A stretch of 61,952 nucleotides of DNA, counting the filler, from Hausera hauseri (lineage: Eukaryota), in the NCBI GenBank assembly GCA_046269625.1. It is 11 parts of 11 records of this genome, joined end to end, with 100 filler letters (N's around TTAATTAATTAA, not from the genome) between each part and the next. Parts side by side here need not be neighbours in the genome. Positions count along the whole stretch, not along the records: positions 1 to 8,309 come from JBJURY010690993.1; 10 more parts are not named here. The stretch is one strand, 5' to 3'. The translations under genes were made by a program, and so were the position numbers. Under the pieces are notes generated by a model. That model did not search any database, had not been told where the DNA came from, and was given only the letters and a program-made list of their open reading frames with translations. This document shows, one piece after another, positions 1-57,869 of this stretch. Within the stretch, counting starts at the first letter, position 1, and every line of letters starts with the position of its first letter.

Positions 1-178
1 TCTTTCCTTGTAGCTCTGTATTGATTTTCCTATAGATGGTTTTTGAGTTCGGAATCCGCACTGTTACGTATCGATGTAAAAATTCGTCGATACTAAGTCG
101 ACTTGTTATTTCGTCATTGTCGATGCTAAGTCGGCTCGTGACTCCTTTGGCGTCGATTCTAGTTCGGCTTGGGTCCAT
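1..178 (-). CDS. Putative accessory ORF (partial) with 11-aa SRLSID repeats
   Basis: ATG at 178, open to the window edge (MDPSRTRIDAKGVTSRLSIDNDEITSRLSIDEF...). Preceded by a polypyrimidine/AG acceptor-like site at 201-215. Confidence 0.35.
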   Translation of the reverse strand, partial: MDPSRTRIDAKGVTSRLSIDNDEITSRLSIDEFLHRYVTVRIPNSKTIYRKINTELQGK

Positions 179-298
179 ATGGATCTGATTACTTACCAAT
201 CTAAAAAAGAAAACATGAAGGTTAATCTTAAAACAAAGGATGGTTTTAAACTAAAACCAATTCTTTGTTTGATGACAGAATAACCTGATCTGTAATTG

Positions 299-1703
299 TC
301 AGGTTATTTTATCATACGGATTTACGGGGTTTTCCAATTCCCTTGGTTCCCATTCTGAATTTTTAGGACTCCTAGAATAACAGTTTTTGGTAACTAGTCG
401 AAAAATCGCAATTAGTATAATGAGAACAAACGTTGACAGTACTGCAATAGATGCAATTGGTAAAGCAGTTAATCTTAGTGGTGCTCGAATAGTAATTGAT
501 GTTGTGGTTTTGTCGTCTATATCTTCGCGTGTATGCAGTTTCGCATAAATTTCAGCTAAAGTACGCAATGTAATTGTTTGGGTTGCTTTGTTCTCTGCAT
601 ACACTTGTATTATGTATTCAGATTGTGGTTTCAGTAAATTGCACTCTGTTTGATAAGTATTTTTAAATAGAGTTACCATTTGCTTATTATACGTGGTTCG
701 ACTTATATATATCGTAATTTTGTTTTTCCTCCACAGAGAACACATTCTTAGATTGCTGTGTGGAATATTTAATAGGTATGCCTCCTATTTTTCTCTTAGG
801 CACACTGCCTGTCGTAACGGTTCTCGTAATAGCATCAACTCGAGTAGTTGGTTTTCTGGTGGTTGTCTCTACTGAAATTTTCCAAATTTTATTTTCTGGA
901 TAGTAAGTTCGAAGTTGTACACTTGGTTTGTTAGGCCGTACTTATATAAGTCTAATTTTATCTTTAATTCTTGGTTTACGGGTATCTTGAAACATGGCTT
1001 TTTGCACGCCTGCTCGAATAGAGCAATATCCTATTTTCGGGGTGGGTCCAATTGTTGCTTCAAACATGATACTAATTTCCTGACTAAGAGTTAATCCTGT
1101 TCGAGCATCTACTTGAATACATTGTTTGTCCTTATTCACGGAGTTTCTCTGGATATTTTCGTCTAATATTCTTATATCTCGGTCCGTGGATCGTAACACT
1201 TCGTTAGGTTTTACTCTATTATGTCTGTTCCACGCAGGAATATCTAATTTGAATGGTGGCTTCGTTTCAACATAAACTTCGTATGAGTCTGGTAAGTAGA
1301 GACAATAGGTAAGGTTATACGTGTGTCCAAAATTTATGTCGCAACATTGCATATAGTCTCTAGGCTCAAAATCACAATTTTTCGCTTCTTTTGTGGTTAC
1401 GTCAAGTAAGACAATTTGAAATCTTCCGAAATCATGATGCGGTTTCCAAGCTTTAAATCCAGCATATACGGAGTTTGGTGAATAATAATGAATTGTCATT
1501 GATTGTAATAATTTAATGTCTTCTTGTATTTGGATTTCTTCGGCTGTTGGTTTCTTGTCCGTTTTAACAGCTTCCGATTTTGTTCCACTTTTCCGAATTC
1601 CGTATATATCTCCTAACGTAGATTCATCATGCCACCATTGCGCTTGTATTCTTGGGATATAGGAGGCAATTAGCGATAATGCTAAAACTATTTGAACATA
1701 TGA
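299..1703 (-). pseudogene. Type I membrane protein with fibronectin type III-like domain(s), in frame with the integrase C-terminus
   Basis: Signal-like YVQIVLALSLIASYIPRIQA, FN3 signature LLKPQSEYIIQVYAEN (weaker YLPDSYEVYVET), Thr-rich linkers, TM LPIASIAVLSTFVLIILIAIF and short tail ending YDKIT. One frameshift near 880-900 plus stops. Confidence 0.65.
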
Positions 1704-1759
1704 TATTGGTCTAGTAACTATTGACAAAGTTTTTACCTCACGTTGGCGTAAATTGTAAC

Positions 1760-3257
1760 GTTTGCTGGGTCCTATTTCTGTCTTGATAACTCTTTGTACT
1801 GACACAACTTCTTCTTTTCCATTCTTGTTGATATACACTGTGGTTGGCGTGACTCCGATGATTTCATATGGTCCTCTACCCGTACGAGTCAATTTTAGTG
1901 AGGTGCCTTTTTTGGCTACCGGTTAATGTACATAAACCCAGTTTCATGATTCCAGGTCATGTGGTTTCGCTTTTTTATCACATTGCTTTTTAAGTGGCTC
2001 TTGATATTCTTGAAATAATTCCTTGGCGATTTCCCAACACTTTTGTAATAGCGTCTGTAGTACTTCCGCAAAATTTTGTTCCAAATCTTCAAGACTGACT
2101 GGGTATGGCGTCATTCTTAAGTCTGTGGGCAACACAGCTTCACGTCCGTACATCGTAAAAAATGGCGTAAATCCTGTTGCTGGATGTGGCGTGGTATTAA
2201 TTGCAAATTGAGTTCATTCTAAAAATTCGTCCTAGTCTTTTTGGTCCTTGGCCACTACTGTAGATAGTATACGCATGACGGTGGCATTCATCCGTTCGAC
2301 CATTCTGTTATATTGAGGGTGATATGCAGTTGTTGTCAATCGTTCGATTTCAAATATCTTGGTAATCTTTTCGAAAAGTTCACTGGTAAAGTTTCTACCT
2401 CTGTCCGTTAGTATTTGGTCAGGTGGTCCGTATAGACAAATGATTCTTCTTACTACTGGTTCTGTTAAAGTTTCCGCCTTCTGATCGACCAATGCTATCA
2501 ATTCGACAAAATGAGTTAATCGATCAATACACGTTAAGATACACTTATTGTTCTTGTGGGTCGTAGGAAGAGATCCTACGATATCCATCGACATGGCTTA
2601 CATGGGCCTATCGGGCACATTAATTGGTTTTAATTCAGACACGTAGTTTTTTGTTTTCTTTTGTTTAGTAGCACATACTTCGCAGGCCAATTTTTCGCAT
2701 ATCCAATTTTTTACATCGATATAGATATTAGGCCAAAAATATTTATTCATTATTTTTTCTAATGTTTTCTTCCAAGACATATGTCCAGCTAAGTATGAAT
2801 CATGTTCTGACATCAGCACTTCAGTTCGTAAACTTTTTGGGATAACTATCAATTTTCTTCCCTTTCGTTCGTAATATAAGATGTCTCCTTCATTCCCGTC
2901 ATTTAGGACGCAGTATTTATGTCCATATCTGTGTAAATATTCCTTTAACTGTCGTCCTTTTGGTATAATATCTGTTTTGTCAAATTCTATAATCTGCTGG
3001 ATAACTTTATCTTTTCTCTGTTTTGTTGAAATCTTGATTGCCCTATCCACCGTCAACGCTCGTTGGCGATCTATTATTTCTTCAAGCTGGCTTTTCTTCA
3101 TTACAGTGATTGCGCTGGTTTTGGTCTTTAATCTAGACAACGCATCGGCGTCTACGTATTTATTTCCTGGCTTATACTGAAATTCGATGTTATATATAGA
3201 GATTTCTTCGATCCATCTGTTAAGTCTGCATGTTGGATTATTTGCTCGACCCTTCAA
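1760..3257 (-). pseudogene. pol: Integrase (HHCC zinc domain, DDE core, GPY/F tail)
   Basis: H..LAGH...C..C, DIVG, TDRGRNF, AYHPQ.N.MVER, MYGRE, then GPYEI...VSVQRV. Confidence 0.93.
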
Positions 3258-4450
3258 AGTTGTAACGGCCTTGTGATCAGTGACAATTATAATTTTCTGT
3301 CTGTATACGTAAACATTTAAATGTCGCAGTGCTTCTATTACAGCTGGAGTTTCCAGTTCGGTAACATATTATTTTTTCTCGGCCTTTTTCAAGGAACGTC
3401 CTCCATAAGCAATTGGGTGTTCTAGTTCTTCGTCTTCTCTTTTCTGCGCTAATTCATAACTAATGCCTTCCTTACTGGCGTCTGTCTTGATTATGAAATG
3501 CAAGTTAAACTCTGGATATCGTAAAACTGGTTAACTTGTTAATATCTTCTTCATCTCGTTGAAAGCTTTTTGTTGGACATCTGTCCATTTCCATTTAATT
3601 CCTTTCTTAAGTAGACGGTATAAAGGTGCATTAATTTTTGAATTATCTGGTACATATTTTGCATAATATCACATAGTCCTAACCAATGCCTCAACTCTTT
3701 CTGGTTTTGTGGTTCCATACAATGTGGTATTTTGTTCAATAACGACTTATCTGGTTTCGATCCTCCTTCTCCAACTATATGACCTGGGTAAGATACGGCG
3801 TTTTGGGCCCATTTGCATTTCTTCGGATTTAATTTCCATCCGGCTTGTTCTAGTCTCATCAGCGCATGTTCGATATCTTTTAAGTGTTCCTCTTCTGTCC
3901 TCGATGCTATAATCACATCGTTTAAGTACGCAAAAGCATGATCCAATCCCATTAACATTTTGTTCATCATTCTTGTAAATATGGCTGGTCCGGTAGTAGT
4001 ACCAAACGGCATAACATTAAATTCATAAACGCCATCGTAAGTTTTAAATGCCGCTTTATAGCGGTCTTCGTCCTCTATTTCTACTTGCCAATATCCAGAT
4101 TGTATGTCCAGAGTAGTAAACCATTTTACTCCTGAGAATCTATCCAGGGCCTCTTTTACTGATGGTAATGGAAAAGAATCTTTCATCATAAGATTATTTA
4201 GAGCTCTGTAATCGATACAAAATCGGTGCTTCGTAGTGCCTTTCTTTTTAACCATAAGGATAGGTGAGTACCAGGATCTATAACTAGGCCTGATTATGTC
4301 GGCTTTAAGCATCCGTTCAACTTCCTTTGTTATCTCAGGTCCTAGCGAATGTGGTGAAGGGGACCATTTCGGCATCTGATCCTCCAGATCTATTTCTTCA
4401 TTTAAACCAGGCTTTTTCTTGAGCGGAATGGTTAATTTTAACGCTTTTGC
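3258..4450 (-). pseudogene. pol: Reverse transcriptase and RNase H
   Basis: RFCIDYRALN, LDIQSGYWQV, MPFG, YLND (decayed YxDD). RNase H motifs KTDAS, HPIAYGGR and VTDHK read at 3270-3530. Confidence 0.95.
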
Positions 4451-4672
4451 TCTACCGATATCTCCTTCATCCTTAGCAATAATCGATTTATAGCGGCATA
4501 ATAGTTCATAAAATTGACAATAAGACTCGGGTGAAAACTTGGTTTCGACGTGAGGTGGAAATTCGGCGTATTTATAAGGTTTCTCTTCGATAGTTATCGA
4601 CGATACTCTATATGTATTACCTAGAGTAGTATAAGCATGGAGTTTGATAGGAGTTGGTGCACTGTTCGCTAT

Positions 4673-5482
4673 TCAAATTGGTACACGACCGGAGTGTACT
4701 GTCGTAAGTACGTTACTGAGCATTATATTTGGATTTAACGTTTCCTTTGGCTCGAAATATACTAGCTGATTGTCATCTTGCTGAATTTGTGCATAAATTA
4801 TTATCTTTGTTCTTGGTGGTATATTCTCGTCTACTGGTATCCATGCTTCTCCAAATTTTCTATCCTTAGCGTTTTTTACGCCTTTATTGGGTCTGATTTC
4901 TATTAATTTTCCTGTTTGCAAGTCGATTGCTATATTTGGTAGCCTCTTTAATAAATCGCATCCTAGAACGACATCGTCAGTTAATTGTTCCATGATTGCA
5001 AATTCATGTCGAAATGTTTCTCCAACTAATTGGACTTCTGGGTTTTATTTAAACATTGGTTTCGACGTTTGGCCAAAAGCTCCAGTACTGCCTGGATCTT
5101 TCGTATATGGCGAATATAACTGTCCTCTTAACGTGTGAGTTATTAAATCATTTTTGATGTAAGACATTTCGGAACCCATATCGATTAGTGCCTAAACTTC
5201 CCAATCTTCAATAATGATTTTGGCGAAAGGTCTTCCTTCGATCACGGTTCCAAAACAGTTTGATACCACTTTCGAATGTTTAGTCACAGATATTTTGTGT
5301 CCGTTTATTCTTACTTCTGGGGCGGATATTATGTTTCCCGAAAACTGCCTTAACTCCTCGTTTGGATATAATTCATTGTTTTCCACGTGCAATTCTTCCA
5401 TTTCATGAATACTAATTAGCGGTTCCCGATTGTTAGTATGTAATTCAGTATGTTTGAAGGTTTTAGCCTTGGGTTGTCCCAA
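4673..5482 (-). pseudogene. pol: Retropepsin protease region of pol
   Basis: GRPFAKIIIEDWEV*ALIDMGSEMSYI (D[T>M]G active site near 5180) and downstream VLGCDLL. Confidence 0.85.
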
Positions 5483-5922
5483 ACTGACGATCTCATTTAA
5501 ATATTGTTAGGTTCTTTTGGTGAGTATATCATCTTAGGGTCATCTGCGGATTGACGGTAACACATTTTCCGTAAAATTCCGTATCATTTTGTTCTTTCAT
5601 TAGGGTCTTCTACATTAATTGTCCTTTTATAAACTTCTGTCTGGTATGAGCTCATAGATCGTTTGTCACAATCTTCGTAGAATGGAGCGGTAGGGGGTAA
5701 CATGGGTAATGGCGCTTTAACTACAGAGTACACATTGTGTCTATTCATCCCTGGGAATGCTTCTCCTCCCTTAGGCTCGTCGTCATCTAAATCATTCCTT
5801 ATTGTAATAGGTTTTGTAATCTTTTGCTTTCGTAAGAATATAAATCTTTTTCTTCGTTTGCGGTTATGATATCCGACATGACGTTCTACGTCTGATTTCC
5901 ATCTACTCTCTTCATATGCCTT

Positions 5923-7755
5923 TCAGAATTTTCCAAAGGGCGTTATGATTTCAGTCAGGATTTTACATGAGAATCCGATCAGTGTAAATATTTCGTATCC
6001 GTTTATTACTGCTTCGATGACTGCCTTAATTATTTGTATCAAAAAATATATCGCTAAGAATCCGGATGCTGCCTGTCCGAAAATCAAAAATCTTCCCCAG
6101 ATTTTGTAAAGTATTTTGGTAGTCACTCTCTGATAGTGGTTCACACCAAGTAATGATTCCCACTTAGCCTGATATCGTGTTCGTTGTCGTGGAAAGGCGA
6201 GGAATTGTCTGAAGGCCTCGATTTCCTTTGGCCTGTATATACCTTTCGACGAGGTGTCTTGAAATTTATCGTCTGTAATTCCTTTTGCAAGATTTGTCCC
6301 TGTTAACTTGTTGGGAGCGGCAGTGATACCTCCATTAGGTAGACTAACCCAGTCTGTTTCACTACGTCTAAACATGGGTTCTCCTAAGCTTGCTTTGCAA
6401 TCCTTAAGAATGGTTGGTTGTGTCGCGTTATCCAACAACACTCTCGTCAACGGTGTAGCTAATCTTGAAGTACTCTGGTAAATAACAGGAAGTTCCTGGA
6501 TACAACGTTTTTCCTCTACGTTGATGGGAACTTCTCTCTTTTCACATTTATAGGTTAGTAATACTTCACCCGTAACTCGGCCGAAAATTCCTTCTGTCAT
6601 TGGAATTATTGGAGAAGCCAATTCCGGGTTTGCATATATAAGAGCCATTTTAGTTCTCATGATTTCGGTATTCAATTTGCAGTCATTCGTTATCATTTTA
6701 TGATATAATTCCGTTATTCCGATTTGTCCTTTATGGTAGAAATAATCGTCTCTATTTTTCAGGTAGTCCTAAATCCGGACATCTTGCGTTTCCAATTTGT
6801 AGGTCCTCGCGTTTATCTCCATTTCGGCTACAAAGAAAGCTTTGTAATTCGTGGCGAACATTACTACATCGCAACGAGTCATCATCTTTTTTTTTATAAA
6901 TTTTAATCCATGTGGATCTGAGATTAATATAGTAGGTGTAGGGTGTTCTGATACATCTTCGCGTGTCCTTGAGTTTGTCTCCGATTTATCCCCATACCGC
7001 TTTCCGGTAGTTTCATTAAACTTTAGCTCCTTAATTTTGATAAAGTTACAGCTTCTTCCAGAGGGAGGTTCCAATATTATAACTGAACTTCTAAAGGCAC
7101 ATGTTCCATCTTGTAAATCACATTTTTGATTCTCAGTGTATAACTTAATGACGCTATGGAACATTACCTACTTTGATTGCATTTCTGATTCGTAGAAATC
7201 CAAAACTACTACATTGGGTTCTAATCCTTTTCCGGTATCGTATTCTGCTCCATTACAATATCCGGTGTGAATTTTCAGCCTTCCAGCCACTACTTTATAT
7301 GCTCTTATTATATTTCCTGGTTGCATCTCTAAGTGCATACTGTCCCATTGTACCCTTCCGTTCTTTTTGGCTTGTTTGCAGTGCTGACGTTCTAAATTCA
7401 TTAGAATTAACGGAGTAGTTGGCTTAATTATGGAGAAATGTCCATGTATTAGGCCGCAGTGGAAGGTACTACGTGATCGTCTCAGCATGCACTCCATTCC
7501 GTCTAACGATATCAATTCTTGTTGTTGATATAGGAAGTAACTTTTCTCTCTCGTTTCCAGTTTGTGCGGTCTGGCATCCTCGCATACTTCCAGATCCATC
7601 AAGGAATATCTCTGAACTAATTTAAACTTATCGCAATCATAGACGGTTACCGCGCTTATATGCTTTATTAGCATCATTAGGGTAAGCAAGCTAATTATCC
7701 AATTCAATTCATTTTTCCGACCTCCAACGTCTGATGTTGTCCGACTACGCAACAT
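5923..7755 (-). pseudogene. env: Envelope glycoprotein, chuvirus G-like class III fusion protein (gB/VSV-G structural class)
   Basis: ORFs 7168-7755, 6769-7164 and 5923-6696 share one frame, split only by stops. Signal peptide WIISLLTLMMLIKHISA|VTVYDC. Cys and motif series YDC, FHCG, KCDLQDGTC, GEVLLTYKC, CIQELPV, TPLTRVL, GIY, then TM region FGQAASGFLAIYFLIQIIKAVI, matches my recollection of chuvirus-type glycoproteins. Confidence 0.8.
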
Positions 7756-8309
7756 ATCGTCGAGTTTATTATTGTTTCGTTTGTCTTCTTCCTTATCAAA
7801 TAGTCATGCCCAATTTACTTCGCAAGGAACTCTTTTTGCTGCTCTCCATGCTAAGCTTATAGCCCGATTGATTTCACTCTCTCGATTAGGATTTATTTTG
7901 ATAGCCATGTATAGCAATACTTTTCTCAATTCTTCATTCGCGTTTTCCACCATGATCTTTTCGATTACCGATTTATCAGTTGAATTGCTTTTCGATAGTT
8001 TAAAACGCGAGCTTCGCATCATTTTGGCTGCATCGAAAATTATTTTTTCTTTATCATCCAACACATCTCCTCGGAATCTAGAATAATTCACAATTCGTAT
8101 TAAATTTTTCATTAACTTGCTTAATTCTTCATTATCTATGCTAAGAGTTGGGATCGACATCTGTCTCAATTCTCTAATTAGTTCTCCATTGTAATCTACT
8201 TCTTCTCACAATTTTCTAGGTCTGCCTACTGGGCGTTTCGGTCTGGGACCTTTAGTGGCTGCTTCGCTTAGTGGTACTAAATTTATGTCGTATTGTTCGT
8301 TATCTTCGT
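7756..8309 (-). pseudogene. Region upstream of env in the same frame (probable gag C-terminus or linker) with an AT-hook-like motif
   Basis: Frame is continuous with env apart from two TGA stops; contains KRPVGRPRK near 8210-8240. Confidence 0.4.
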
Positions 8310-8409: not shown

Positions 8410-8438
8410 AATACGGGTAGGAAATAATATTAACCATC

Positions 8439-8910
8439 ATGGAATTAGTTAATCAACTGAAGCAATTGCAAAATTTTGATGGATTATTAATTTCAGACTT
8501 AGTACGATGGTGACAGGTACTTTATAGTGAACTGGTTGCGAGAGCAGCAGGTGATTTTGGAGTTAAAGGAGATCTATCGTCAATAGCATTGATGACAGCA
8601 ACAGATTGTAGCTCTATAGAAAATCTAATTATTGTGTTAAATCAAGTGTACATGCACCGATTGTACGATACAAATTACTTTAATACTGTTAAAAAGGTAC
8701 GCGGTGAATTAACCAACTTGAAAGAGAAAATAATGAACAATGTACGAGATTGTCAGTTTATGTGTGTACCATGTAAACAAAGAAAAGGGATACGGTATTC
8801 TTAATGTGCGGCCATCTCGTTGTTTGTCAAATGTGTCCACCAAAGTAACCAACCTATGTCCAGAATGTAAATGTGCTATAATGGAAATTGTACACATTTA
8901 TTACGAATGA
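8439..8910 (+). pseudogene. RING-finger (C3HC4, IAP/MDM2-type) protein, Polinton accessory gene
   Basis: Across frameshifts it reads CVPC...DTVFLMCGHLVVCQMC..KVTNLCPECK..IMEIVHIY. Confidence 0.6.
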
Positions 8911-9153
8911 CTTCTTCAATAGCAGAACGAAACAGTGTCATGGGCTTCAATGACGTGGAGGTAACTGGTATCATTGTGATATGAGACAATACTCACAAAG
9001 TAAATGTCTATTGTTTACAATGAAAACAAATCAGTATGAACAAATTTGATATAAATATGGATGCAATTTCATTTCATGTTTGTCTTATTTAAAAATGTCT
9101 TTGGAAAACTATTCAGCAGGTGACAGTTCAGCGAGTCTCTGAAACAAACCACG

Positions 9154-9535
9154 GTACAGCGAATATTCGTTCAGAAATTCCCAGTTGTATAATTGATAAA
9201 ACTTACATTATTTGAGCAATGCTATTAAATTGCCATTGACGCAAACGGTCAAAATCAAACCGGTGAAATATGGTCTATTGATAAAAAAAATCAGCGCCGA
9301 TAATTTGGATACAATGAAAGACACAATTAGAAAAGTTGGCAGTGATTTGGTGTTGAGTAACGATATCCGAGATATCGTCGATTTTCTCAAAGGAAATAGG
9401 GCGAAAATTGTCAGTTCACATGGCTTAGTAACAGCAGTAGTTTTGCTACCGGAAGGAGCTAAAGGCTACCTGACACTGAAGCTGAAAGGATTCAAGGAAA
9501 GAGGTGGCGTCAAATCCCCAATATGGAAAATGTGA
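9154..9535 (+). pseudogene. Conserved small Polinton-associated ORF, convergent with PolB
   Basis: Clear homology to 54860-55250 (GLLxKKI..D..D.M..T..K..SDL.LS..IRD; EGAKG.L.LKLKG), with the same position relative to PolB. Confidence 0.65.
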
Positions 9536-9854
9536 AAGTTTACTATGATTTAACTGACTTTCTTTGTGTGCTTTGTGATTTTAGTTTTCCTCCGATCAAT
9601 AAATAAATGTATTCGTGTTACATATTTTGTTTTCTCGTCCAAGGTTATTGTTTTACTTTTACTTCTATCTTAATAATAATATGTAAAGTAAGTAACTGGA
9701 AACAAAACACAAAAGACACTTAGCAAAATACGTTGTTAAAATATACAACAAAAAATATACAACGAATAATTGTAAATGATTGTCACAGTAACTGAACTGA
9801 ACTGAACTGATTTGCCTGAACCCAGAGAGCACCGACTGTTTGGACGTGCGTTTA

Positions 9855-12800
9855 TTTCAGCCGCCATTGTCCATACGTCCAACTTTTATTTTGCACCACT
9901 CACTTTTGCTTATCATCGTTACATGACAAGGCAACTTTCGCACTAGTTATTGTGTACAGCTGGTGCTCAATTGATCGGATAATCGTTTGAGACACAACAG
10001 CCACTGATTTTCCTTCTTCTGATGCTGCTGCTTCTTCATATATATGGTTATAATCACCGTGGCCGATTTTGGTCTACTTCAGGTGGACTCCTTTTTCCCG
10101 CATTTTCAGTCCACAGTCCATCAGAAGACTGTAAAACTTTGGGCGTAGGAATATCCATTCCCGATACTGAACCCTGCATTCACTTTCATCCTTGAAGCAG
10201 CCGATTTTGTTGGTGATCGCGCTGCTGTACAACGGATTATCCGGTGGGTAGTTTGACGTGTTCAGTAATCCATCTGACTGCATTTGCTGCAGTAGCTGTT
10301 CGCGATTGACTTTTTCCAGCCACAGGAAAAAACTGTCTCTGTCACCGGCAATTATACTAATGTCACAGCCGTCAAACATTTGCCGGTAACGCGCCAAATC
10401 GCGATACTGTAGCTCATACATCCGTAACTTGCTCAGGTCCAATACCACTTGTCCTATGTAACTTGGCAGGTCCAGAACGACTTCATCTCTGTTTAACAGC
10501 ACTGCATCCAATCCATCGGCAATGTGCATTGACCGTCGAAATTGTGCCTTGCTGTTATACGTAACCAGTCGGTTTTCGCTGTTGCATAGGCGTACATTGA
10601 GCCGCTTTTTCAGATTCGCTGCTGTTTTTCCGTACAGAGAATTGTTTTTTAGCTTGTAGTATTCCTTTTCGAACTTTGTACAAGCTACGGCTCGTTTCTC
10701 CGAATTTCCATCTATGTACGCCTTGAATATTGGAGCCTGATCAAATCGTATTGCACGATGCAGCTGTGAGACGCGAACATCCAGCTGCATGTAAAACTGT
10801 AGCAGACGCCAATGGACCACGTAATTCAGCTTCAGTTCAGGCGTCATTAGCAGTTTCTTTACTTTTGAGCCTGGCGGACATTGGTTAAATGGTGCGACCG
10901 CTAAATCGTCCGAAACATCATGCAACTCATCTGGTACCACGAGATCGACCTCCATCAGGTATCCGATTGAACATGTCATGTCTGCTCGTGGTAGGTCGAC
11001 CATTATATCGTCCAGATCTTGTCTGTCGACTACCCATTCGAATGAACCGTACAGCAAGGGTTGCGAAAGCGCTCGGCCGTACAGGTTATTAATATCAATA
11101 TGCAGAAGTGATGTGGTATCGGCGGTAGCACAGACCTGATGCTTGTTGACAAATGCCATGCCGCCGCGAATACCAACATCAAACAGCCGGTACATTTCCG
11201 GTTCTTAGAGTAGCTCAATGTCTCGATCCAGTGACATTAGAGCTGACTCCCAACTCATTCCCGGTATGGAATAGAAGTTTAGTGGCTCTAGCCTATCTTC
11301 AGCCAACGCTTTCGCTCGAAACGCTTGGAACACATCGGCTAATAAGTAAACGTCCAGTTTAAGATACTGGAGCATGTAACCCAACTAGTTTCTACAGCCG
11401 AGTTCTGTTCAACACCTTTGTGCTTTCCGGTATTCATCCTCTGCGATACCTGTTCACCGCGCTGGTAGTTCCTCTGCTGTCCGAAGTCGCTCATACGATG
11501 TTGCAAAGTCATAGGGGAATATGCCTTTGCTGCGTGCAATATGTGCGGGGAACTGCGTTAGTGCTATCGGCACATCTGGAAAGGAATTTACCAGCTTTGC
11601 CAATGATTCATTGAGAAATTTCAATGAATCAAGGAAGCGTACCTGGAACCGGTTTATACGTGTAGACAGTGACAAGTATTTCTCCTTTGTAGTCGGAATT
11701 ATGGATAATTCCCAGTGCGGAAATCCATTTATTGCCCATTTCAAAATATGATGACAATTATAACCCCTGAAATTATGAAATACCACCTTTAAGAATGGCC
11801 GCACGCCTTTCCAAATTGCACGAATTGCATGCTGCTCCGAGATATCGAGCGTAAAATGGTCGTGATCCGGTATGAGCCGTTCCAGTGCGTGGAGCGGTAA
11901 TATTTTTTGTGGCACAGGTAACATTTATCTGTGACTGCAAACGTCAGTCGTTCATTTTCATCTGTCCATATCAAGGATTTATTGCTATTTCTACTGTACC
12001 CGGGTATTATTTCAGTTTCCACTATGGTTCGCAACTTCTGCAAGAAATCTCGTACACAATTCCATCCGTGGAAAACATAATATTGAAGTTGACCTGTAGT
12101 ATTTATTGGGACAACCAACATACCGACGGCGATTGGAACATGTTTTGGTCATATATGTTGTGCCGTGGTAAGATAGCTTCGATGTCGGCATATACTACAT
12201 ATGCCGGACTATCTGTTTTTGACCAATCAGTGAACCTGAGTTCCTGTTTGACGGGCATGACATACATTGTGGTTCCTGCCGAATTTTGTCTGAACAGAGT
12301 TACCTGTTTCTCCCATGTTGTTTCCGACTTGAATCCATGAAGACATACAGGACACCATTTACACTGTATCCGTTTTTGGAGGAAATGGGCATGCTGCATG
12401 TTCAGTATTCTGTCCAGATTTGTCACTGCAACGCAATGATACTTTTCTTTTTGTTTTGGTAGCAACAAATTTACTGAGCGGCCATTAGGGTTCCGACTAC
12501 GATAGATTATATCCACATGAGGATTTTTGTAAATTTCTTCATCTTCCGGTATTTCTACGATTGTGTTGTACCGGAATACGTTGATTGCCAGTGTCAGATT
12601 ACGCCGTTCAAAAGCCGAAATGGATTTCAGTTTCATCGGCATCCAGCTTTCATCGAAATCCAATTCGGAAAAATACTGCCGATACTGTTTTGGACGAGAT
12701 GCATTATGTCTGTTAACTTCATCATACTTCAATACAGCCAGAATACTGTAAAGAAAACAGTATTCATCGTTAATATTTTTACATTCACTACCGCCAGACT

Positions 12801-13000
12801 GCTTCAGAGCTGTAGGTGTCGGTATGAATGATCACCGGACAAATATGCAATTCAACTTTGTTATAAAGCCGAGGGTGACAATTCGTATAATTCGCCATCC
12901 ACTACCCTTTTTCATGTAGTTGGCGATTTTCTCCTCGAGCTTTTCGCCGATGTCGTCAATAAAATGATTGGCATAAAGTACAGCTCGATGTGACAGTTAC
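9855..13000 (-). pseudogene. polB: Polinton/Maverick protein-primed family B DNA polymerase (family A copy 1)
   Basis: IRGG, DINNLYG, KLKNNSLYGKT, GD[R]DS, IGCFKDE, LRPKFYS, DDK. Exonuclease motifs YADIE, FHNFRGY, RFLDS. Many frameshifts. Confidence 0.93.
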
Positions 13001-13251
13001 CATTGTTTCCTGTCACCTTCAATGCTTACAAATTCTGCAAGTGCATAATATTGCATTTTGTAGTGCTGGTGTCGATGTTGGAATTTCTTCATTTCTAATT
13101 CCAACCGGTTGCGCCCATTTTGCGGAACATGATTCAATTGCGTTGCTGTTTTCGCCTACATGTTCGCTTTTATATCCACCTACGATCTGTTTAGATCGCA
13201 CTTGACTGTAATGTCCGGTTGTTCCTGTCGTATCTGTTCCTCTTGCTGCTG

Positions 13252-13787
13252 TTATTGACCATGATGTTGCTCTTCTTGCAGCTCGGTACTGGTTCTGATG
13301 TATTTGTCCAAACTTGTTAATGCCTTACGTTTCCGACTGGTTGTTGTTGTTGTTGAAGGGATGCTGCTGCTGCTGTCAACTTTTGTTGATTCCATTAACA
13401 TTTGTTTTTTCGACCACCACCGCTGAAGCTGGTTTGAGTAGTCCTGGTGCTCATTGTAAAATTGTTCATAGTTGATTTCATCAACTATTGAACAACCAGG
13501 ACAAATATAGGCCCATTTACCGTGCACCTTTGTGGCGCCATAGTATTGCTCCATTGCACTATGGCAACCATCAACGTCGTGCACTATACTTATCTAGTAC
13601 CGTGCGTACATGGGGCAATGCACTAGCATCGTCTTCGACGGTGTAAAAGGTCCGAGATGATGCTTGTGCATCTCATGAAAATCGGAGTACGCACATTTGG
13701 CTGAAATATTACACGTGGTGTCCAGTGTATTACACAGATGTGTCCATTCCAACGTTGTAATATTTCTCCAACTGTTGATGACACTGT
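13252..13787 (-). pseudogene. Hypothetical Polinton ORF upstream of PolB
   Basis: Same strand and immediately upstream of PolB; CxxC motif and basic tail; no recognised family. Confidence 0.3.
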
Positions 13788-14249
13788 NNNNNNNNNNNNN
13801 NNNNNNNNNNNNNNNNNNNNNNNNNNNNNNNTTAATTAATTAANNNNNNNNNNNNNNNNNNNNNNNNNNNNNNNNNNNNNNNNNNNNCAAGCAGGACTTA
13901 TCAAATATCAAAATAGAAAATCGTCCGATTTACCCACCAAATCTGGATTCGTTCGAAATAACTATATACTCAAATATCAAGCTAAATTTTGCAATTGGCA
14001 CACAATTTCTCCAGAGGCTTCAGTGCGTGACAATGTTGTATATTGGCTTTTGCTTCTAACAGCGTTGGCTTTGATTTTATAACGTTCAATTATCTTTCAA
14101 GAAGCTGAGTTTGTTTTTGAGTGCGTTTCCTCTGTAAATTTACTCAATCTAATTTTTGGTTGTAAAAAAATAAAAAACGTTTGTTTTAAATTTTGATTGT
14201 TGAACACCATTTTTACAGTTTTATTCAAATGAATTTGGGTGCTGACAAG

Positions 14250-15560
14250 TGTGAAATTATCGTTACGACTCCAAGGGAATTATTGAATAATACTCGTAGC
14301 CATAGTATTGGCCTTAAACACTTCTCTCATCTGCTAATTGCTAGGTTTTTCATCATGCAAACAAAAGACAACCTCTAATTTATATTAGGGATATGACAAC
14401 CCTTCACATCGACAAGAAAGTCACCCACCATACTTTTCAAAATTCAATTTTAAAATAATTTATATTTCAGCCACATAAAATCTAGTTGCCGATTCTTTAT
14501 CGAGATTAATCAACATCATTGGCGTCACACCAATTTTTCACAAAACAATTGCCTACGATACTTCTAAAACCGATAAAAAGAAGTACATGATTTCTCCGCA
14601 TTTGCCGAAAACTGAATTTTACAACATCTACTCACTTCATCATCCGTGTGCAAAAGAAACCTTTGATCTTCTTTAACGCCAAGTTATTTGGCCGTTGATG
14701 CGTTTAGACGTACAGACGTGAGTTAAGAACTGCGTGGAATGCGACAAATTCAAAATCTACAAGAATTTGAATTCATCACCAGTATCACCTTCCTGTACAC
14801 AACGCTTTGAGTCCAAGCACATTAACCTAATCGGCCCTCTTCTTCCAGACAACAATCCGCAGTTTATACGCATCATTATGTACCACTATTCTGAATGGCC
14901 AGAGGTCATTCCACTACGCTCCACTAACATAGACACCATTGCTGATGTCTTCAACAAAACATGAATCAGCAGGTTTGGCTCACCATGCTTTATAATCACG
15001 AACCTAGGCCCACAATTTGAGTCCAACTTGTTTAAATCCTTAGTCAATCGCTTGGGGATCAAATAAATACACATTTCACTCTATAACCCCCAGACGAATG
15101 GTTTACTTTTAAGATTTCACCACACAATGAAGACCTCACTTAATGTCCTTGCGCAGAGCTCTGGATAACTGGACAGCTCTCCTTCCACTCGTCTTGCTCA
15201 GATGGCAAAATATACTCTCTACCATCACGGATTGTGCACCAGCTAATTCATTGCTTTAGCCTCCCATACGTGAACTTTACGAGTTAACCGATCTTGATGA
15301 CGCGTCGACCAATGAATTTATTTGAACTGCACAGGATCACTTCGAAGCAATAAATAAAGACGCATTTTGCAAAATTGTAAAACAAGTCAAACATACAGAA
15401 TGATCTATAAACAGTCAAATTTGCCTGGCTCCGCAATTCTTCAACCTGTGGTTTTTAGTTATATTACGCTGAGCCATACAAACTTCTTGCTTTATCATCT
15501 CAAACAGCCACAATACTCAGAAACAATAAAGAACACATTGTGCACATCATCAACCTAAAA
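14250..15560 (+). pseudogene. pol: Highly decayed Gypsy RNase H-integrase
   Basis: NLVADSLSR, H..HP...WP.MR.DV...VKNCVEC, INLIGPL, WPEVIPL, YNPQTNG. Confidence 0.8.
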
Positions 15561-16495
15561 CCGGCTTTCTTTGTGGACTATTCCCCTAATGATTCACAAA
15601 GAAATCCCAATCCGCACGCACTTTCCTTGACCCTTTGGTACTGCTACACATCCGTCAGACTCAACGAACCGCACATCACCACCCGATCCAGCTTATACTT
15701 TTTTGCTTCCCACTTCGCACTTTCTAACATTTTCGTGGGCAGCTTCATTCACTCATGATCAATTACTTTACTTCCTTCCCTTGACTTACTGTTACAGGAA
15801 ACAACATCTTATACTGCAAAATCAAACAATTTTCCTACCAAATCACCTCATCAAGCGACTAGAAAAGCAAACACACATCACAAGTCAGTAACATTCCGTA
15901 ATTACGGTAGGGAGTAAAATATTGAAGGAATCTTAACGCCTCTTATACAGAGAAGTTGTATAGGCGAAACATATTTTTTTCACGGTTTCGCCTTTTTTGT
16001 TTCACTGCATAGATGTTCAAATAAGAAAAGTGGGGCGGTGATGTGGTGCCGCAGCCTCAGGCACCACTACCACCACTCGGCAATCAGTCCGACATTTGAT
16101 GCCGTTAGGATTGCGCAACTTCCATTCTATTCCATCGCCCTTTTGGCATTTGTTCGACTGGCGGTCGTACGGTCAGTCAGCAATTTCAGCATATTGATAA
16201 TATCTTAATGAATTCCAGCAATGCTGCTGAATCAACTCCAATATTAACATTTAAACCTGAACTGACGCAACTGAAATCCCACTTTAGTGACAAAAATTCA
16301 TTCCGAAAATATTTCGTATTTTCAGCCGTGATTTGCAAGGTCCGAACAATAATTTAATCACAGAAAGTAGGGGATATAAGGACACGGCATCCATATAAAT
16401 TTCCTATCTCGAGACTCCCCAGGATTGGAAATCAATATTCAATAATCAATATTTTTATATGGGAAAATTTTGGAAATCAATATTTAATATGGGAA

Positions 16496-16638
16496 AGTTG
16501 GGCGCCGTTGTGGTTTCACTATTCCCACTCCCAAGAAAATTTGGGCGCCGTCGTGGTTTCATTATTGCCACTCCCAAAAAATCAATATTTTATATAGGAA
16601 ATTTGGGCGCCGTCGTGATTTCACTATTCCCACTCCCA
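16496..16638. repeat. Three copies of a ~40-bp unit (AAATTTGGGCGCCGTCGTGGTTTCACTATTCCCACTCCCA)
   Basis: Copies at about 16496, 16537 and 16599, with AATCAATATT...ATGGGAAA repeats from about 16428. Confidence 0.85.
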
Positions 16639-16639
16639 A

Positions 16640-18686
16640 TTTGTTTAAATTTTAAATCCTTAAATTTTCCAATTACTGATGCGAAACGGGTAGAATAAAG
16701 AGGGTCTGTAGCATCATAGCTAGAAGTGTACAACTGCTCATTTGCTACCATTGCCGGTAAGAGCTGAGTTCGCAAATCAACTCCACGACACTCAAGAAAG
16801 AAACTGTCAGTGTCACCAGCAACAGTATTTAGTTCACAATTGAACTGATGTTTATATGACTCTAACTTCATGTAATTCAGTTCATACATTCTCAACTTGG
16901 AAAGATGAAGAACAGCCTGTCCGATATATGAAGGTCTATCTAAGGTAGCCATGTCTTTATCGAGAAGAACAGCAACAAGATCATCAGCTATTATAATACT
17001 CTCTTTAAACTGGGCCTTACTAGCATGTCACAAGCTTTCTAGCATTATTACATAGTCTCAAGTTTGACCTTTTTAATAGGTTTTCGACTTTCTTACCATA
17101 TAAGCTATTGTTCTTGAGCTTAAAGAAATCCTTTTTAAAAGGATTTTTTGCTGCAGCCCTCTTATCAGTGTTTAGATCAATGTAATCCTTAAAGACAACC
17201 TTGGTCAAACTCAACAACCCGATGTACCTTCTCAACTACAGCGCCTAACTGAATGTACAACTGTAAGAGGCGATAATGAACAACATAGTTGGACTTACGC
17301 TCATGTGTTAGCAACAATTTCTTTACTTTTGAACCAGGACATCGGTTGATTGTGGCTAGAGGCAGTTGATCCAACTTATCATGTTTGTCAGCCGGAATGC
17401 TTATGTCAACTTCAAAGACTAAACCTCGTTTTTCCCTAATAGTCAATGTAAGGTAATTGTTGGATCAGACTGGTCAAGACGTCCTCATCATAAATCCAAG
17501 TCAGATTCGCAAATGGTAAAGGTTGAGATAAAGCTCAGCCGTATAAATTATTTACATCTATATACAAAAGACTGGTGCTTTCATCTGTTACAATCCTATG
17601 TTTATTTACAAAAGTAATGCGACCGCGAATACAAGGACTGGTTTTCAGTGCTGTTGCCCAACTTAAACCTGGAATTGAGACAAAGTTAGCGGCTTCTAAA
17701 CCATCTTGCAATTTAACCTCTTTTCTACATCGCTCAAAGATATCGCCTAACAAATATACGTCGAGCTTCATATATATCAGCATATAATCTAAAAGACAGC
17801 TGCAACTGTATTTTGACCAAATCAGTTGTGCTTTCTCATAATCGCTCTCAATCACACCATCCCATTTTGCTGGTAAGTCCTTAATCGACTGCAATTCATT
17901 GAAAGATTTGGCTGCAGTATAAGGAAAAATACCTCTTCCCTTAATAATATCTGAAGGAAAAGCCGTTTCAGTCAATGGATAGTTATCTAAGTTTGACGCC
18001 AAAGTCTCAAGTGAAGCCGGCAAAAATTGCAACGAGTCTAGAAATCGAATAGACACAGACTTTTTACCAGAACATTGTATATATTTGCCCGCATTGTTAA
18101 AAATTTCTCTGTCGTTTGTGGAATCACACTCAAGTCCCAACTGTTGAATATACTTACTGCATGTTTCAAGATATGATGGAGATCATAGCCACACAAATTA
18201 TGGAAAATTACAGGCAAATTATATCTAATCTTACGAGCCAAGTTACATTTGTTGCAAGCCGGGCCTAAGAATTTACCTGAAACATGGCAGTGGTCTCGAA
18301 CTAATTGCGAACCGGTTTCATGACAGAGGTAACATTCTGTAGCATTTTTAAAACGAGACCATTCAGCAGATGTTAACGGAATCATGGGTTTTTTGGCATT
18401 CTGGTAGGAAGGAAAAACTGAGGTTTTCACTATGTCTACCAGACAATCTAAAAATTTGACTATACAATTTTCACCAACAAACTGTTTGTATTCAATACCG
18501 GATGATGAAACTAGTAAAAGACCGGCTGCAGCAGGCAATTGAATATGTTTAACCTTTTCGTCAGGACAAAGAACAGATTCAAGGTCGGCATATACAACGA
18601 AAGGCGGACTAATAGATTTTGACCAATCCTTAAATTTACAGAACTTATTTTCCTGCATTTTGTACAAAGTCATACACTATGCTGAA
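16640..18686 (-). pseudogene. polB: Polinton/Maverick pPolB, divergent family B, 3'-truncated
   Basis: YADLES, CYLC..DHCH.SG..LGPACNKC, FHNLCGYD, RFLDS, DVNNLYG, KLKNNSLYGK, GDTDS; ends at IGKFKD. Confidence 0.92.
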
Positions 18687-21375: not shown

Positions 21376-23373
21376 GCAGATCCCTAAGAAACTTCTCCAA
21401 TTTTTGACACATTTTGGTTTCTCAAAGGACTTAGTTGTTTCCAGTTTTGATCGGTTTGTCTGTATCCACTTGTCATTCACTATATGCCCTAAAAATTTTA
21501 CTTTTTTCTTCAGGATGTGATATTCCTCATGGTTTACTCTGAGACATGCTTGCCTGATCCTCTGCAATACCTTTTCCAGTATCCTATAATGCTATTTTAG
21601 AGTCATCTAGGTATACCACTGTTTGTTCAATATCTTCTAGTACTTTATTCATTAGTTTTTGGAAGGTTCCCGGGGCTGCTAATATACCGAATGACATCCT
21701 ATTGAAACAGAACTGCCCTAATTTAGTGGAAAACGCCGTCTTCAAATTGAAGTCTTCCTCTAGCTCGACTTGGTAGGATGCGTTGCCTAGGTCGATTGAC
21801 GTGAAAAACGTGGTCCCGTATAACCTGTCCAATATCTCTACCACGTTAGGTATGGGAAAGGCCTGCCGTTCCGTTATAAGATTCAGCTGTTTGAAGTTCA
21901 GGCATATTCTGACATAGTTCTTGTCTTTCTTCAATACGCATATTATTGGTGTATTCCATGCTGAGTTACATGGCTTGATAATATCGTTTTCCCATAGGTT
22001 TCGGATAGTCTCGTCGATCTTTTTTTCTAGGTTTACTGGTTGCCTGTGAGGTTTGATATTGATCGGCGCTCCTGTCGTGTCTATTCGGTGTTTGATGAGA
22101 GATGTGCACCCTATGTCCCACTTGTCGGCCATGAATACCTCTGGGTATTTCTGTATAATGTTGAGTAGCTCTTTGTTGTCACTCACCTGAAGAGCTTCCT
22201 TCGCCCTGTTGACTTGTTCTTGGTTAGTCACCTTACGGTTGAACTTGGCTACCAGGTTGCATATATCTTGCTGTAATGTTTCCGTTTCCACGCGTTTCCA
22301 TTCCAGTTCTATTGCGAATGCCTTTTTCAGGTCCACACCACCTATTATTTTTGGGCATAATTCCGATACGACCAGAAATGTCACACGTCTCCTTAGACCC
22401 TTAATTTCTACGTCTGTTGTAAGTGTGTCCAGGCAGTCTAAGGGGCTATTGTTCGCGCATCGTAGTGTGGTATCTGATTTCTCTATGTGTGTTTGCAAAT
22501 TTATCTACGATCTTTTTGCTTATGACGTTTACCCTGGACCCTGTGTACAATAAGCAATCTTCCCATCGGTCTTGTATCTTTAATTTGATTCCTGGTCACC
22601 CATTAAACTTCCTGTATGATATCTGTTCGACATACAATTCGTCCAGCGTGAAGATCTGCGTATCGTTCCCACTTTCCTCTATTCTGTTGGAGGATACTTC
22701 CTGGAAATTTTTCGTTTCCACAAATTTCCGTACCTTATTCTTGTGTCCTTTTATCCATCACTATATCTTCGTGTCCCCTTCTTGATCCGTCTATACTGTT
22801 TCATATAATATTACTATTATACATAATAATATTCTGGGAGACTGACACGATTGTAGTGTCCCATTTGCTCCACTTCTACCGGAGCTCTGCGTTTTGGGGC
22901 AACTAACTCCTGTTCCGATTTTGCTTCCTCTTCTTCTACGTTTGCGACGTTGCCCCATCTTCTGTTCAGATAATCCCCATACCTTCTTTCCACTTTGTAT
23001 GTATCCCATCCTGGTTCTCTTTTCCCTCCATCCTGGTGTAGCACTCCTTTTTGATATGTCCCCTATGGTGACATCTTGCACAGCTAAGGTTTGTACAATT
23101 TCGTCTGATGTGCCCTGGCTGACAACATCCGTAGCATCTTATTGGTTTCCTTTCGGGACACTGCCTGCCTATGTGTCCTTCTTTTTCGCATCCAAAGCAT
23201 TTTATCGGTCTCCGTACGGTGCAAGGTCTGCTCGTATGTCCTTCCTTCTGGCATGTTTAACACATTAATCTACTATTTGATGTTCTAGTTGGGTCTTGTT
23301 GATTCTAGGAACGGATTTCCTGATATTTTGTGCTGCCACTTCCTGGTAGCTTCTTCTACCGATCCCCGGATAC
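21376..23373 (-). mobile_element. Decayed Ty3/Gypsy gag(CCHC)-protease-RT fragment
   Basis: Zinc-knuckle remnants, CLL[Y]TGSRVNV protease, DLGNASYQV, YLDD, RSFLG. Close paralogue of 55640-57763. Confidence 0.92.
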
Positions 23374-34795: not shown

Positions 34796-35839
34796 TGGAG
34801 TCAGAGATGAAGGTAGGAACAAACCTGTTTGTTGACGTGTGCTGCAGTTTCCTGTGTCATTTAACCTTTTNNNNNNNNNNNNNNNNNNNNNNNNNNNNNN
34901 NNNNNNNNNNNNNNTTAATTAATTAANNNNNNNNNNNNNNNNNNNNNNNNNNNNNNNNNNNNNNNNNNNNCAATTAATTATTAGGAAAGAGGGGCGTCGT
35001 ACAGTGTGATTTTGATGACGTAGACGAACAACGAAAACTATGGAAACTCGTCCCGCGTAAGTCCTTGGTTACCGAAGCACACGTGCCGCGCCGCGCCACA
35101 TGGTTATCACTGCTCATTGAGCAACATGAGGTTACCCCGGAAGGTGGTCCAGAATCAGCATTTTCCTCCTCTATAACGAAATTTTTAAATTGTTTGAATG
35201 TACAGTGATCAAAAGTCATGAACACTGTACTTTAAAAATTTAATTTCCACTATTTCTGCTGACAAATAAAACCCTGCTTTCGTCTATAAAAATTAATTTT
35301 CGTCAAAAGTCCTAAGGTATTTTGGACCATTTCCATGAAAAAGCCAAATTCATTTGCCTGTGTCGTTTAGTCACGAGCGGCTTAACCGTCTTGAACTTTG
35401 ATCAGAACCCAGATTTTTAAAAATAATTTCCAATAGTTTCCGTTGAAAATTCCTTTGAAAATGTTTCAGTTACATATGCTTTCAATTGAACAGCTGTAAT
35501 CAGTGGATTACTCCGGAGACGCAATATCAATGAACGTTGTTTGCTCAATGTCAACTTTGGTTTTCTACCACAATTTTACATCCCGTTACCAATATCTCCT
35601 GTATTCGTGTTCTGCTCATGATTTTAGCAACAATGATATTAATGAAATTGAAACAAATTTGTTGGTTAAAACAATATTAAGTGTATGAAATGTCACATTT
35701 AAAGCCGCTGACTTTGAGAAATAGCATATTGCATTAATGATAAATATATATTTTTATGATTTATGAAGTTTTGTTTATAGCGTTCCCAACTATTGTCTCG
35801 GTCACTGTAGTCTATGCGTTGATAAATACACAATAATTT

Positions 35840-36330
35840 TACAGAATACATTTCGACAAACAGCGAATGAAGAGAATAGAATCATAATCAACCTTCACAA
35901 TGATGTCCAGTTATACCGAAATATTTCAAAAATAATCGGTAAATTGTCGACAGCAGTCATTAAAATCGTGAAAACTGACTATGATCATAATAGACTATTT
36001 CGTTTACCATGATCCGGACGACCAAGAATCACGACAAAACGGGTCGATAGGCGGATTTCTGACATTTCAAGAGCAGATAATTACTTATCGGTTCCAAAAA
36101 TTCAAGGAAAGTTAAGCGAAGAGAATAAAACTGCACCATCAACATCAATCATTCGTGGTCAATTGCGTAAATATGTCACATGGCCGAGTCGCTCGTAATC
36201 TACCATACATTAGTCCCATAAATATACGAAAAAGAATGGATTTTTACCACTGCCATGTTCTTAAGACTCCAGATTTTTGCGTTTCAATGGAAAACAAAGT
36301 GGTGTCAACATACTTTTGACACACACTTGT
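35840..36330 (+). mobile_element. Internally deleted Tc1-like transposon (HTH region plus terminal repeat-like end)
   Basis: SGRPRITTKRVDRRI...GRVARNLPYIS..NIRKR, then TACTTTTGACACACACT near 36311-36328. Confidence 0.65.
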
Positions 36331-37899
36331 TGTGCCGACCAATAATCCAGTCCGATCTTCAACTTTGGACAGTTTTACCGTTAGATCACCGATTAGAGAT
36401 CGGTACTAACTGTGCATTTCAGTCGTCAATGATTAAACTCCTTCCACACCATTTGAATTATTATGAATTTGAGAGTCGTATTCGTCGACAAATTATCAAT
36501 CATTCGTTTTATGTTTCTCGATGCTGTACCTGTACTCTTTTATTTTTTTATTTCTGTAATTTGACTATTATTGATTGAAAAACAGGTACATATGAATCTT
36601 GTAAACAAATATTCATTGAGTTCTGTAAATTTACCTTTTTAGTCAAACAATTTTAATAGAAATTACAAATAGATGGTGTGAAATATTTTATTTAAAACAT
36701 CTTGTCATGTTTAAGACGTTGATGTACGACGTTGTGTAGGCACCATTTGACTCGCCCACTTTTGCTCGTTTTGCCTAGGATTGGAACAATAAATTTCTGG
36801 AAAGAGCAGAACATTTTTCTAAGGTTGACCAGCCCATAGTTTTTCAATGTCACAAAAGACCTCCAAAAGCCTATAATTGGCTAGGCATCTTATAATCAAG
36901 ATTAAATGAAGCCAAGAAACAAAGGAGATCATTAAGAAATGGAATAACGATTGACAAGATTGTAGATTGACAATGAGAAAAATACCGGGTGATAACGTAA
37001 ATAATTTTGACCATGAAGGTGTTGAAGCAACCTTCGAGATATCTTTTGATAACATAGCCGAAGCTGATACACCAAACAACAAATTACTTGCTGACATTTG
37101 TAGGAAAGGTTTAAGAGAATTTGATTACGCTATGAAAAGTTTAAATTTTATCAAGCTCTTCGTTTCTGTGTTCTAAACTCATTGTTTATTTTCATCATTT
37201 TTAATATCCCTGAAATTATTTTTTATTCAATACTCAAAATCGGATTTCCAGGAATTCTTCAGACTTGTAGTGATAATTATGCCGATTTTCTTTTTTATAC
37301 TTCTGTGCCATACAATTTTTACATAAAGAGCCGAAATTAAAGCAATTCGCAATACTAAATAGACATTGAAACGGATAATTTCCAGCAATGTAGAACATTC
37401 AAATGGTGACATATCTCATTTAGAGTGAACATAAAAGTCGTTCAGTGAAACTTTATCTGCCAGTGCCTTTAAAGAATCTTTTTTATATTTTCTACATTTA
37501 GTTCTATAATTCTGAATTGCAATTTTCTGCTTTTATGGAATAAAACATTCTCATAAATGTACTATCATTTTACAAAGCACCTATAGGAAAGTATTTATTT
37601 CAATCTCTGTTATATTTTAGATAATTATTAAAGTTATTGAACGATTTATTTTCTTATTTTCAATTTTTTTGTGAAATACAAACGTGTTTAGCACATTGGT
37701 TTTCGTATGAAAAGGTATTGACGCCTTGTACAGAAAATTGTAAGATATTGGTTACTGTGAATTTAAAAAATATAAAGTTTAAAATTGTTGCTCCTATTGT
37801 TGAAATCGTCATTATTGTTGTGATCACGGTTTGTTGATAGAATTACGCCAAATCCCGGAAATAACCATAAAACTACATTGGCCAACTGCTTTTCGCTAT

Positions 37900-51364: not shown

Positions 51365-51559
51365 TAAATGATTCTTCTTTTCATCCTTTTTTGAATTTCC
51401 TTACTTTATATTGGCTGTTTATTGATTTAACTTTAAATTGAATTTAAACATTAATATTCGCTTAAATTCCTCCTCACAATCACAACTGCATTATGAACTT
51501 GCAGAATTCGAAAACGTGCAAGGCGACAGAAACAACGGTACCTGTCACATCGAGCTGTA

Positions 51560-54548: not shown

Positions 54549-54859
54549 ACACACACGTGATTCCTTATGTGCTCCGACGATTCAAGACAGACAGTTACAG
54601 TCATTTGTACGTTGTGACAATTACTGAAATTTTGTGATTTTTATTGCTGTTATGTCACAATAAGGTATTTTTGTTCACCGACTTTTTTCTTTCTGCTTTA
54701 TATTTTTATTTAATTTTCTTCACATTAAATAATGAACAAGAAAACGTTAGTTATGATGAAATTTTAATACAGAATTAAAAAGTCAATTTAACATTACAAG
54801 TGTAGGTAAGTTTATTAAGCATTAATCACAAATCACAATATCACGTCAAATCAAACTGA

Positions 54860-57763: not shown

Positions 57764-57869
57764 NNNNNNNNNNNNNNNNNNNNNNNNNNNNNNNNNNNNN
57801 NNNNNNNTTAATTAATTAANNNNNNNNNNNNNNNNNNNNNNNNNNNNNNNNNNNNNNNNNNNNTTTTAT

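Follow-up and report, generated by a model that had tools for sequence, protein, structure and literature searches.

In the 61,952-nucleotide stretch of Hausera hauseri DNA analysed here (hereafter the window), a Ty3/Gypsy retroelement carries, 3′ of its integrase, a gene for an accessory protein with three FN3-like domains. This accessory FN3 protein is a real feature of the element. Arguing from analogy with viruses that divide binding from fusion, we propose, with slightly less than even confidence, that it is the accessory surface glycoprotein of a likely flatworm (Burro-like) errantivirus, translated at the 3′ end of the pol frame and acting as the attachment partner of a gB-type fusogen.

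The window consists of 11 contigs joined by N-padded linkers, and because of these joins an apparent 132-nt repeat family recurring every 5 kb was set aside as assembly linker, not genomic repeat. The accessory gene sits on the minus strand of the contig at 1–8309, where the order from 5′ to 3′ is a segment without family match, the gB-type fusogen, a protease-like segment with spacer, reverse transcriptase (RT), RNase H, integrase and the accessory gene. Both ends of this contig truncate the element, and its LTRs and gag therefore lie outside view. Its features are:

7807–8307, minus strand: segment without family match, in frame with env and running off the contig; no match above cut-off
5584–7803, minus strand: gB-type (Monjiviricetes) fusogen with internal signal segment, interrupted by stops; PF24664, E 7.8e-37 and 5.2e-17
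3554–5190, minus strand: protease-like segment, spacer and Ty3/Gypsy reverse transcriptase; RVT_1, E 2e-32, protease by eye only
1746–3368, minus strand: RNase H and integrase (H2C2, rve) with GPY/F and RYNLR tail; Pfam PF17917, PF17921 and PF00665; signal segment in the same frame
1641–1718, minus strand: signal-like segment that continues the frame of the integrase tail; best 12-residue Kyte-Doolittle (KD) mean 2.48
1236–1517, minus strand: FN3-like domain 1, with four Cys, two of them a CC pair; 29/91 residues identical to P0001 73–163
882–1163, minus strand: FN3-like domain 2, paralogous to domain 1 within the gene; frame broken twice, near 1005 and 945
810–881, minus strand: Thr-rich stalk 1; T/S in 10/24 residues, 14/37 in the P0001 equivalent
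560–786, minus strand: FN3-like domain 3, LKPQSEY signature; 31/74 residues identical to P0001, frame break near 703
458–559, minus strand: membrane-proximal stalk, including a brief run of Thr/Ser; 5/26 residues identical to P0001, T/S 6/26 in P0001
401–457, minus strand: TM helix; KD 2.92 over 19 residues, modelled helix pLDDT 85–95
299–400, minus strand: short tail with YDKIT-stop end (YxxPhi); YDKI at 316–305, stop at 301–299, P0001 ends YDRIT

The order of protease (by eye), RT, RNase H and integrase, together with a Ty3-type RT (Ty3 RT being its top match in the PDB by sequence, E 6.5e-40), is that of Ty3/Gypsy elements (Metaviridae). The PF24664 match (7803–5926) lies on the same strand and 5′ of the RT, placing env before pol, an order reported for Nematoda, Bryozoa and Platyhelminthes (PMC13524379). 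The earlier note had thus been correct in locating a separate fusogen elsewhere in the element. The internal signal segment of this fusogen reaches KD 2.51. The window copy of the element is dead: the RNase H-integrase frame holds five in-frame stops, and the accessory gene is broken three times. In this decayed copy env, protease-RT and RNase H-integrase occupy three different frames, and env and the segment upstream of it share one.

In the Burro elements of planarians a mononegavirus-like env lies between gag and pol and shares their frame, and accessory ORFs may be separate or fused; Burro has BIR, BCL2-like and MATH domains and carries apoptosis and ubiquitin regulators (PMC6431247). In Burro the BCL2-like domain stands just before env and a dUTPase-like domain between protease and RT; the window segments in these positions, the first of them 7807–8307, returned no family above cut-off in Pfam, NCBIfam or PDB searches. 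By eye, the cysteine pattern of env domain I-II resembles that of six Schmidtea rows in PMC13524379. For a late env motif, four 4-letter variants searched in the supplement of that survey were Schmidtea-only (5 matches), and the window's own variant gave 0 matches. Gene order and this by-eye comparison of env suggest that the element is likely Burro-like and its host a flatworm.

Many of the 11 contigs (4–8 kb) are mobile-element fragments, and the window probably unites eukaryotic repeat contigs in a single record. Related decayed protein-primed PolB genes with similar upstream ORFs occur at 8410–13787, 13888–18686, 34971–39917 and 50128–57763 (PF03175 at 10077–11204); we take these four contigs to be Polinton/adintovirus-like. 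By eye, an ORF cluster at 57864–61952 (58223–59119, 57873–58508, 59489–59887 and 60629–61249) resembles genes of Polinton/adintovirus capsid type. At 46557–46892 (minus strand), 3′ of an integrase fragment, a 112-aa frame combines a Cys/Gly/Ala-rich body (GYGACQSVC...) with a signal-like segment, and may hold an intron. Other Gypsy-like gag (with multiple CCHC knuckles), protease and RT fragments lie at 21376–23293, 55575–57763, 50168–51400 and 40318–42518, two of them 85–94% alike; no copy of the FN3 gene was found in these four fragments.

The accessory gene spans 1718–299 (minus strand); it encodes a signal segment followed by three FN3-like domains, with two stalks, a TM helix and YDKIT at the C terminus. 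Much of this had been described in the earlier note, and its landmarks were recovered on the minus strand: the GPY/F tail (GPY at 1874–1866) and RYNLR (1760–1746) of the integrase, followed by the signal-like segment, Cys-containing ectodomain, Thr-rich stalk, TM helix and YDKI. The label of receptor-like protein given there also agrees with the predicted type I membrane topology and with an FN3 fold for two of the three domains.

A deep search of 1.84 billion proteins with 945–1922, from the integrase tail into domain 2, as query gave four matches at E ≤ 0.001. P0002 and P0004 were dropped as bacterial VCBS/cadherin-like repeats with about 50–65 residues matched, and P0003 was dropped with a match limited to the GPY tail. 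The sole intact relative was P0001, a natural protein of 479 aa (E 1.2e-36), which aligns end to end with the accessory region at about 35% identity; because the match is this strong and runs the full length, the accessory region is more than a chance open frame. P0001 has all modules in the same order as the window copy, including a terminal YD[KR]IT, and their retention at about 35% identity therefore points to long protein-level constraint on the frame.

The P0001 alignment fixes the frames of the window copy as 1718–1011, about 1003–948, 941–708 and about 700–302, with breaks near 1010–998, 950–942 and 708–698. In other contigs, too, indels and loose ends fall near these three sites. The single frameshift near 890 proposed earlier was not found: one frame aligns continuously to P0001 over 941–708 (E 1.6e-13), and the breaks lie near 1005, 945 and 703.

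Signal peptides usually drift fast. Here no part of the gene is better conserved than the signal segment, in which 19/26 residues are identical to P0001 versus 142/403 elsewhere (Fisher p 0.0002, for a region picked after looking, one of ten). Cleavage is predicted after IQA, before QW. The segment likely has a second role, for example as an internal signal that also needs release from integrase, or as an overlapping RNA element; RNA folding of the region gave nothing unusual (z -0.17). Contig depth is raised over the signal segment and the TM region, and is a measure unable to rank the parts of the gene.

P0001 was folded with the window pieces as alignment rows (4 rows), giving a mean pLDDT of 48 and a pTM of 0.30 overall. 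In the predicted structure, residues 72–165 form a seven-stranded sandwich and residues 188–262 a near-complete one, at pLDDT about 51–76. Foldseek matched the model to 121 PDB chains at E ≤ 0.001 (best E 6.9e-6, 7–15% identity); the matches listed, from ranks 1–50 with gaps, are by title fibronectin, tenascin, adhesion and cytokine/growth-factor receptor chains. With VIA, the domain 1 model aligned 85 of 89 residues to an FN3 monobody (Z 7.9, rmsd 3.0 Å); the remaining rows are mostly FN3 chains with a few bacterial Ig-like domains, and none attains Z 8. Atlas leads were FNDC5 and IL11RA at 0.85–0.87, all below 0.9. An FN3 fold is thereby supported by modelling for domains 1 and 2, each of which gave, on P0001 and at moderate confidence, a seven-stranded sandwich matching FN3.

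Domains 1 and 2 of P0001 align to each other with a score of 75 that 0/2000 shuffles reached, and judged by sequence they are duplicates. Domain 3 is more weakly similar to domain 2 (50/2000 shuffles reach the score) and is modelled at pLDDT below 50; its Pfam fn3 match (PF00041, 555–700) has 15.8 bits and E 0.017, under the gathering threshold of 25, and motif evidence makes an FN3 fold likely for it. P0001 itself gave no fn3 row in Pfam at E ≤ 0.5, and single-sequence folding of 302–784 modelled only the TM helix with confidence. Structure prediction, which had been suggested as the check on an FN3 ectodomain, thus yielded FN3-type sandwiches for two domains, and the ectodomain appears to hold three FN3-like domains, not one.

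The proposal that the gene is host-derived is plausible from the modelled fold. It is unproven, as the searches gave no cellular donor and the FN3 fold is known from phage and giant-virus proteins as well. Protein and PDB sequence searches, in which flatworm proteins may be sparse, returned no cellular relative of the accessory protein, and the structural matches have 4–15% identity. A PDB sequence search with query A2 gave chance matches only. Scans that need exact short peptides found no related loci in viral contigs (RT, integrase, env and alignment A3 queries), in metagenome contigs (C-terminal piece and P0001) or in prokaryote genomes.

In the window copy the accessory gene is fused to integrase: from the GPY region (1922) to the signal segment (1641) there is neither a stop nor an in-frame ATG on the minus strand. 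Record 10 of X2, one of two sequencing runs analysed, bridges 1678–1932 with 44/255 letters different (83% identical) and zero gaps; this diverged copy therefore shares the frame joining integrase tail and signal, which does not imply that it is free of stops. Both observations speak against the gene being a separate ORF translated from spliced or subgenomic RNA, with the integrase fusion a lineage-specific or decayed state, an alternative that concerns expression only and that we hold to be a serious though not a probable one. In its favour, P0001 is called with its own Met just before the signal and has no RYNLR upstream, so that fusion to integrase may not be general; P0001 is known here as a protein sequence. 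ORF3s of LTR elements typically come from spliced messages (PMC5408684), and an acceptor-like tract stands ahead of the next ORF, near 199–215. An in-frame, stop-free adjacency over 12 codons would arise by chance with a probability of about 0.14, a point against the proposed reading. A word-based protein search, a weak method, found no longer, fused form, and near the expected length only P0001 itself. The claim of fusion to integrase accordingly stands for the window copy, and is compatible with the bridging record, but may not extend to P0001, which is called as a free-standing ORF.

Directly 3′ of the accessory stop codon, at 219–290 (minus strand), lies a long imperfect hairpin (z -1.99; 9/200 shuffles fold equally well). 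Further on, within 2–215 (minus strand), a pyrimidine tract ends in TAG (about 215–199) with GTAAGT four bases on, and an ATG at 181 opens a frame that runs off the contig and contains an SRLSID repeat whose spacing differs between contigs. This frame is possibly a further accessory ORF expressed via splicing.

The element is present in two sequencing runs with different organism labels, X1, which may be the source sample, and X2. Contigs matching 1–8309 number 29,651 of 15.5 million in X1 and 2,198 of 9.55 million in X2, covering 30/30 bins, and no single contig spans the element. The interval 560–1760 is matched by 2,109 contigs in X1 and 137 in X2, again over 30/30 bins in both, with 1,011/2,109 and 85/137, respectively, less than 90% alike. 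Because diverged contigs cover the region and one of them bridges integrase tail and signal, the accessory gene belongs to a high-copy family, and its presence in other copies, named in the earlier note as a point to check, was found in both runs. These many diverged contigs, together with an intronless gene colinear with the intact 479-aa P0001, already largely refute the idea that an inert host-gene fragment or nested insertion merely lies beside this one copy; the broken state of the window copy would fit that idea, which we regard as very improbable.

Among copies, variable sites in the accessory gene show no third-position excess (14/38, p 0.38, counting 38 of 40 listed sites; 698 is at a break and 1726 beyond the gene, and both were excluded). 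This comparison has little power, because pol and env sites are likewise without third-position excess (8/29). The listed sites are mostly differences of the decayed window copy and therefore yield no dN/dS.

On the reading proposed at the outset, the ribosome would continue through the integrase tail into the internal signal segment, the ectodomain would pass into the ER and signal peptidase would cleave after IQA. The TM helix would then halt transfer to leave a type I membrane protein, which the YxxPhi end would direct to the budding membrane beside gB, itself presumably delivered by an internal signal. There, the stalked tandem FN3 domains could attach to a surface protein or glycan of the host, with fusion left to gB.

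A 2026 eLife survey of envelope-carrying retrotransposons calls the entry mechanism of gB errantiviruses unexplained, because gB of HSV needs gD/gH/gL (PMC13524379). A conserved, receptor-like second surface protein is a concrete candidate for answering this entry question. It is conceivable, although we think it rather doubtful, that a lineage of gB-type errantiviruses uses two-component entry, with a class III fusogen and an FN3 attachment protein both cut from one Gag-Env-Pol-FN3 polyprotein threaded through the membrane. If so, a retroelement would have evolved a herpesvirus-like split of binding and fusion, and the missing receptor-binding partner of the flatworm-element gB would have been named. 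Mononegavirus-type glycoproteins of the PF24664 family can bind and fuse alone, and a partner is therefore not required for a gB-type env. In planarians such elements are abundant and can be de-repressed by piwi knockdown (PMC8532177), which makes the question of a gB partner testable.

The same protein could instead work on the surface of the producer cell, blocking or removing the entry receptor (superinfection exclusion) or holding the producer to a target for gB-driven transfer. The conserved terminal YxxPhi would suit endocytic down-regulation, the architecture is like that of adhesion receptors, and a nectin3 captured by a crocodilian ERV occupies its env position (PMC4299795). Co-translation with pol, however, would couple its amount and timing to particle production, and we consider this role unlikely. 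Less likely still is a signalling decoy or host-modulating cargo comparable to the BIR, BCL2-like and MATH domains of Burro, in which tandem FN3 domains with paired cysteines would absorb a cytokine-like or growth signal. The structural matches do include gp130, IFNAR1, IL-12/IL-31 receptors and Tie2, and the Atlas leads and the apoptosis and ubiquitin regulators carried by Burro (PMC6431247) point the same way. However, these receptor matches tie with generic FN3 chains at 4–15% identity, no WSxWS box was seen by eye in P0001 or the window pieces, and the tail is too short for signalling. Even as a cell-surface modulator, the protein would add an extracellular FN3 member to a Burro-like cargo known so far for intracellular regulators.

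Returning to an attachment partner of gB, the proposed likeness is to herpesviruses, where a binding protein (gD or gH/gL, as in HSV; PMC13524379) stands beside a dedicated fusogen. For the accessory protein, no homology to the entry proteins of herpesviruses or paramyxoviruses and no fold in common with them was found, and the likeness would be functional. In paramyxoviruses, H, HN or G is a separate binding protein beside the fusogen F.

With Burro/GYPSM1 and the GAG-ENV-POL errantiviruses of Schmidtea the element shares a Ty3/Gypsy pol, high copy number and a gB env upstream of protease, in frame with an upstream coding segment; it appears to differ in its second membrane protein: neither such a protein nor FN3 is named in the portions of PMC6431247 and PMC13524379 available to us. 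Burro/GYPSM1 is longer than 30 kb and has an ORF1 of about 4,900–5,100 aa with AIR1, SMC, MATH, BIR and ankyrin, whereas only 8.3 kb of the present element is seen. The word fibronectin had no match in PMC6431247, PMC13524379, PMC8532177 or PMC5408684, nor had FN3 in the main texts of the first two. A search of the literature on retrotransposons or ERVs and FN3 gave no FN3 cargo among the matches listed; the original Burro description or Repbase may already annotate the ORF.

Type I membrane proteins of animals with FN3 domains (fibronectin repeats, gp130, Tie2, LAR, NCAM, FNDC5) share tandem FN3-type sandwiches, a single TM helix and a short tail with the accessory protein, but identity is only 4–15%, neither an orthologue nor a donor was found among them, and domains 1 and 2 of the accessory protein have paired cysteines. 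LTR elements of bdelloid rotifers also carry non-fusogen ORF3 cargo 3′ of pol, some of it with a TM segment, but as separate ORFs and with no FN3 reported in the portions available of PMC5408684. The closest precedent is CrocERV31, a crocodilian ERV that captured nectin3 (PMC4299795). Like the accessory protein, this nectin3 is a three-domain beta-sandwich adhesion protein, situated in the env position and proposed to aid infection. The CrocERV31 protein, however, is of Ig type, shares about 76% identity with the host gene and stands in place of env, whereas the accessory protein described here is of FN3 type, lacks a recognisable donor and occurs together with a fusogen.
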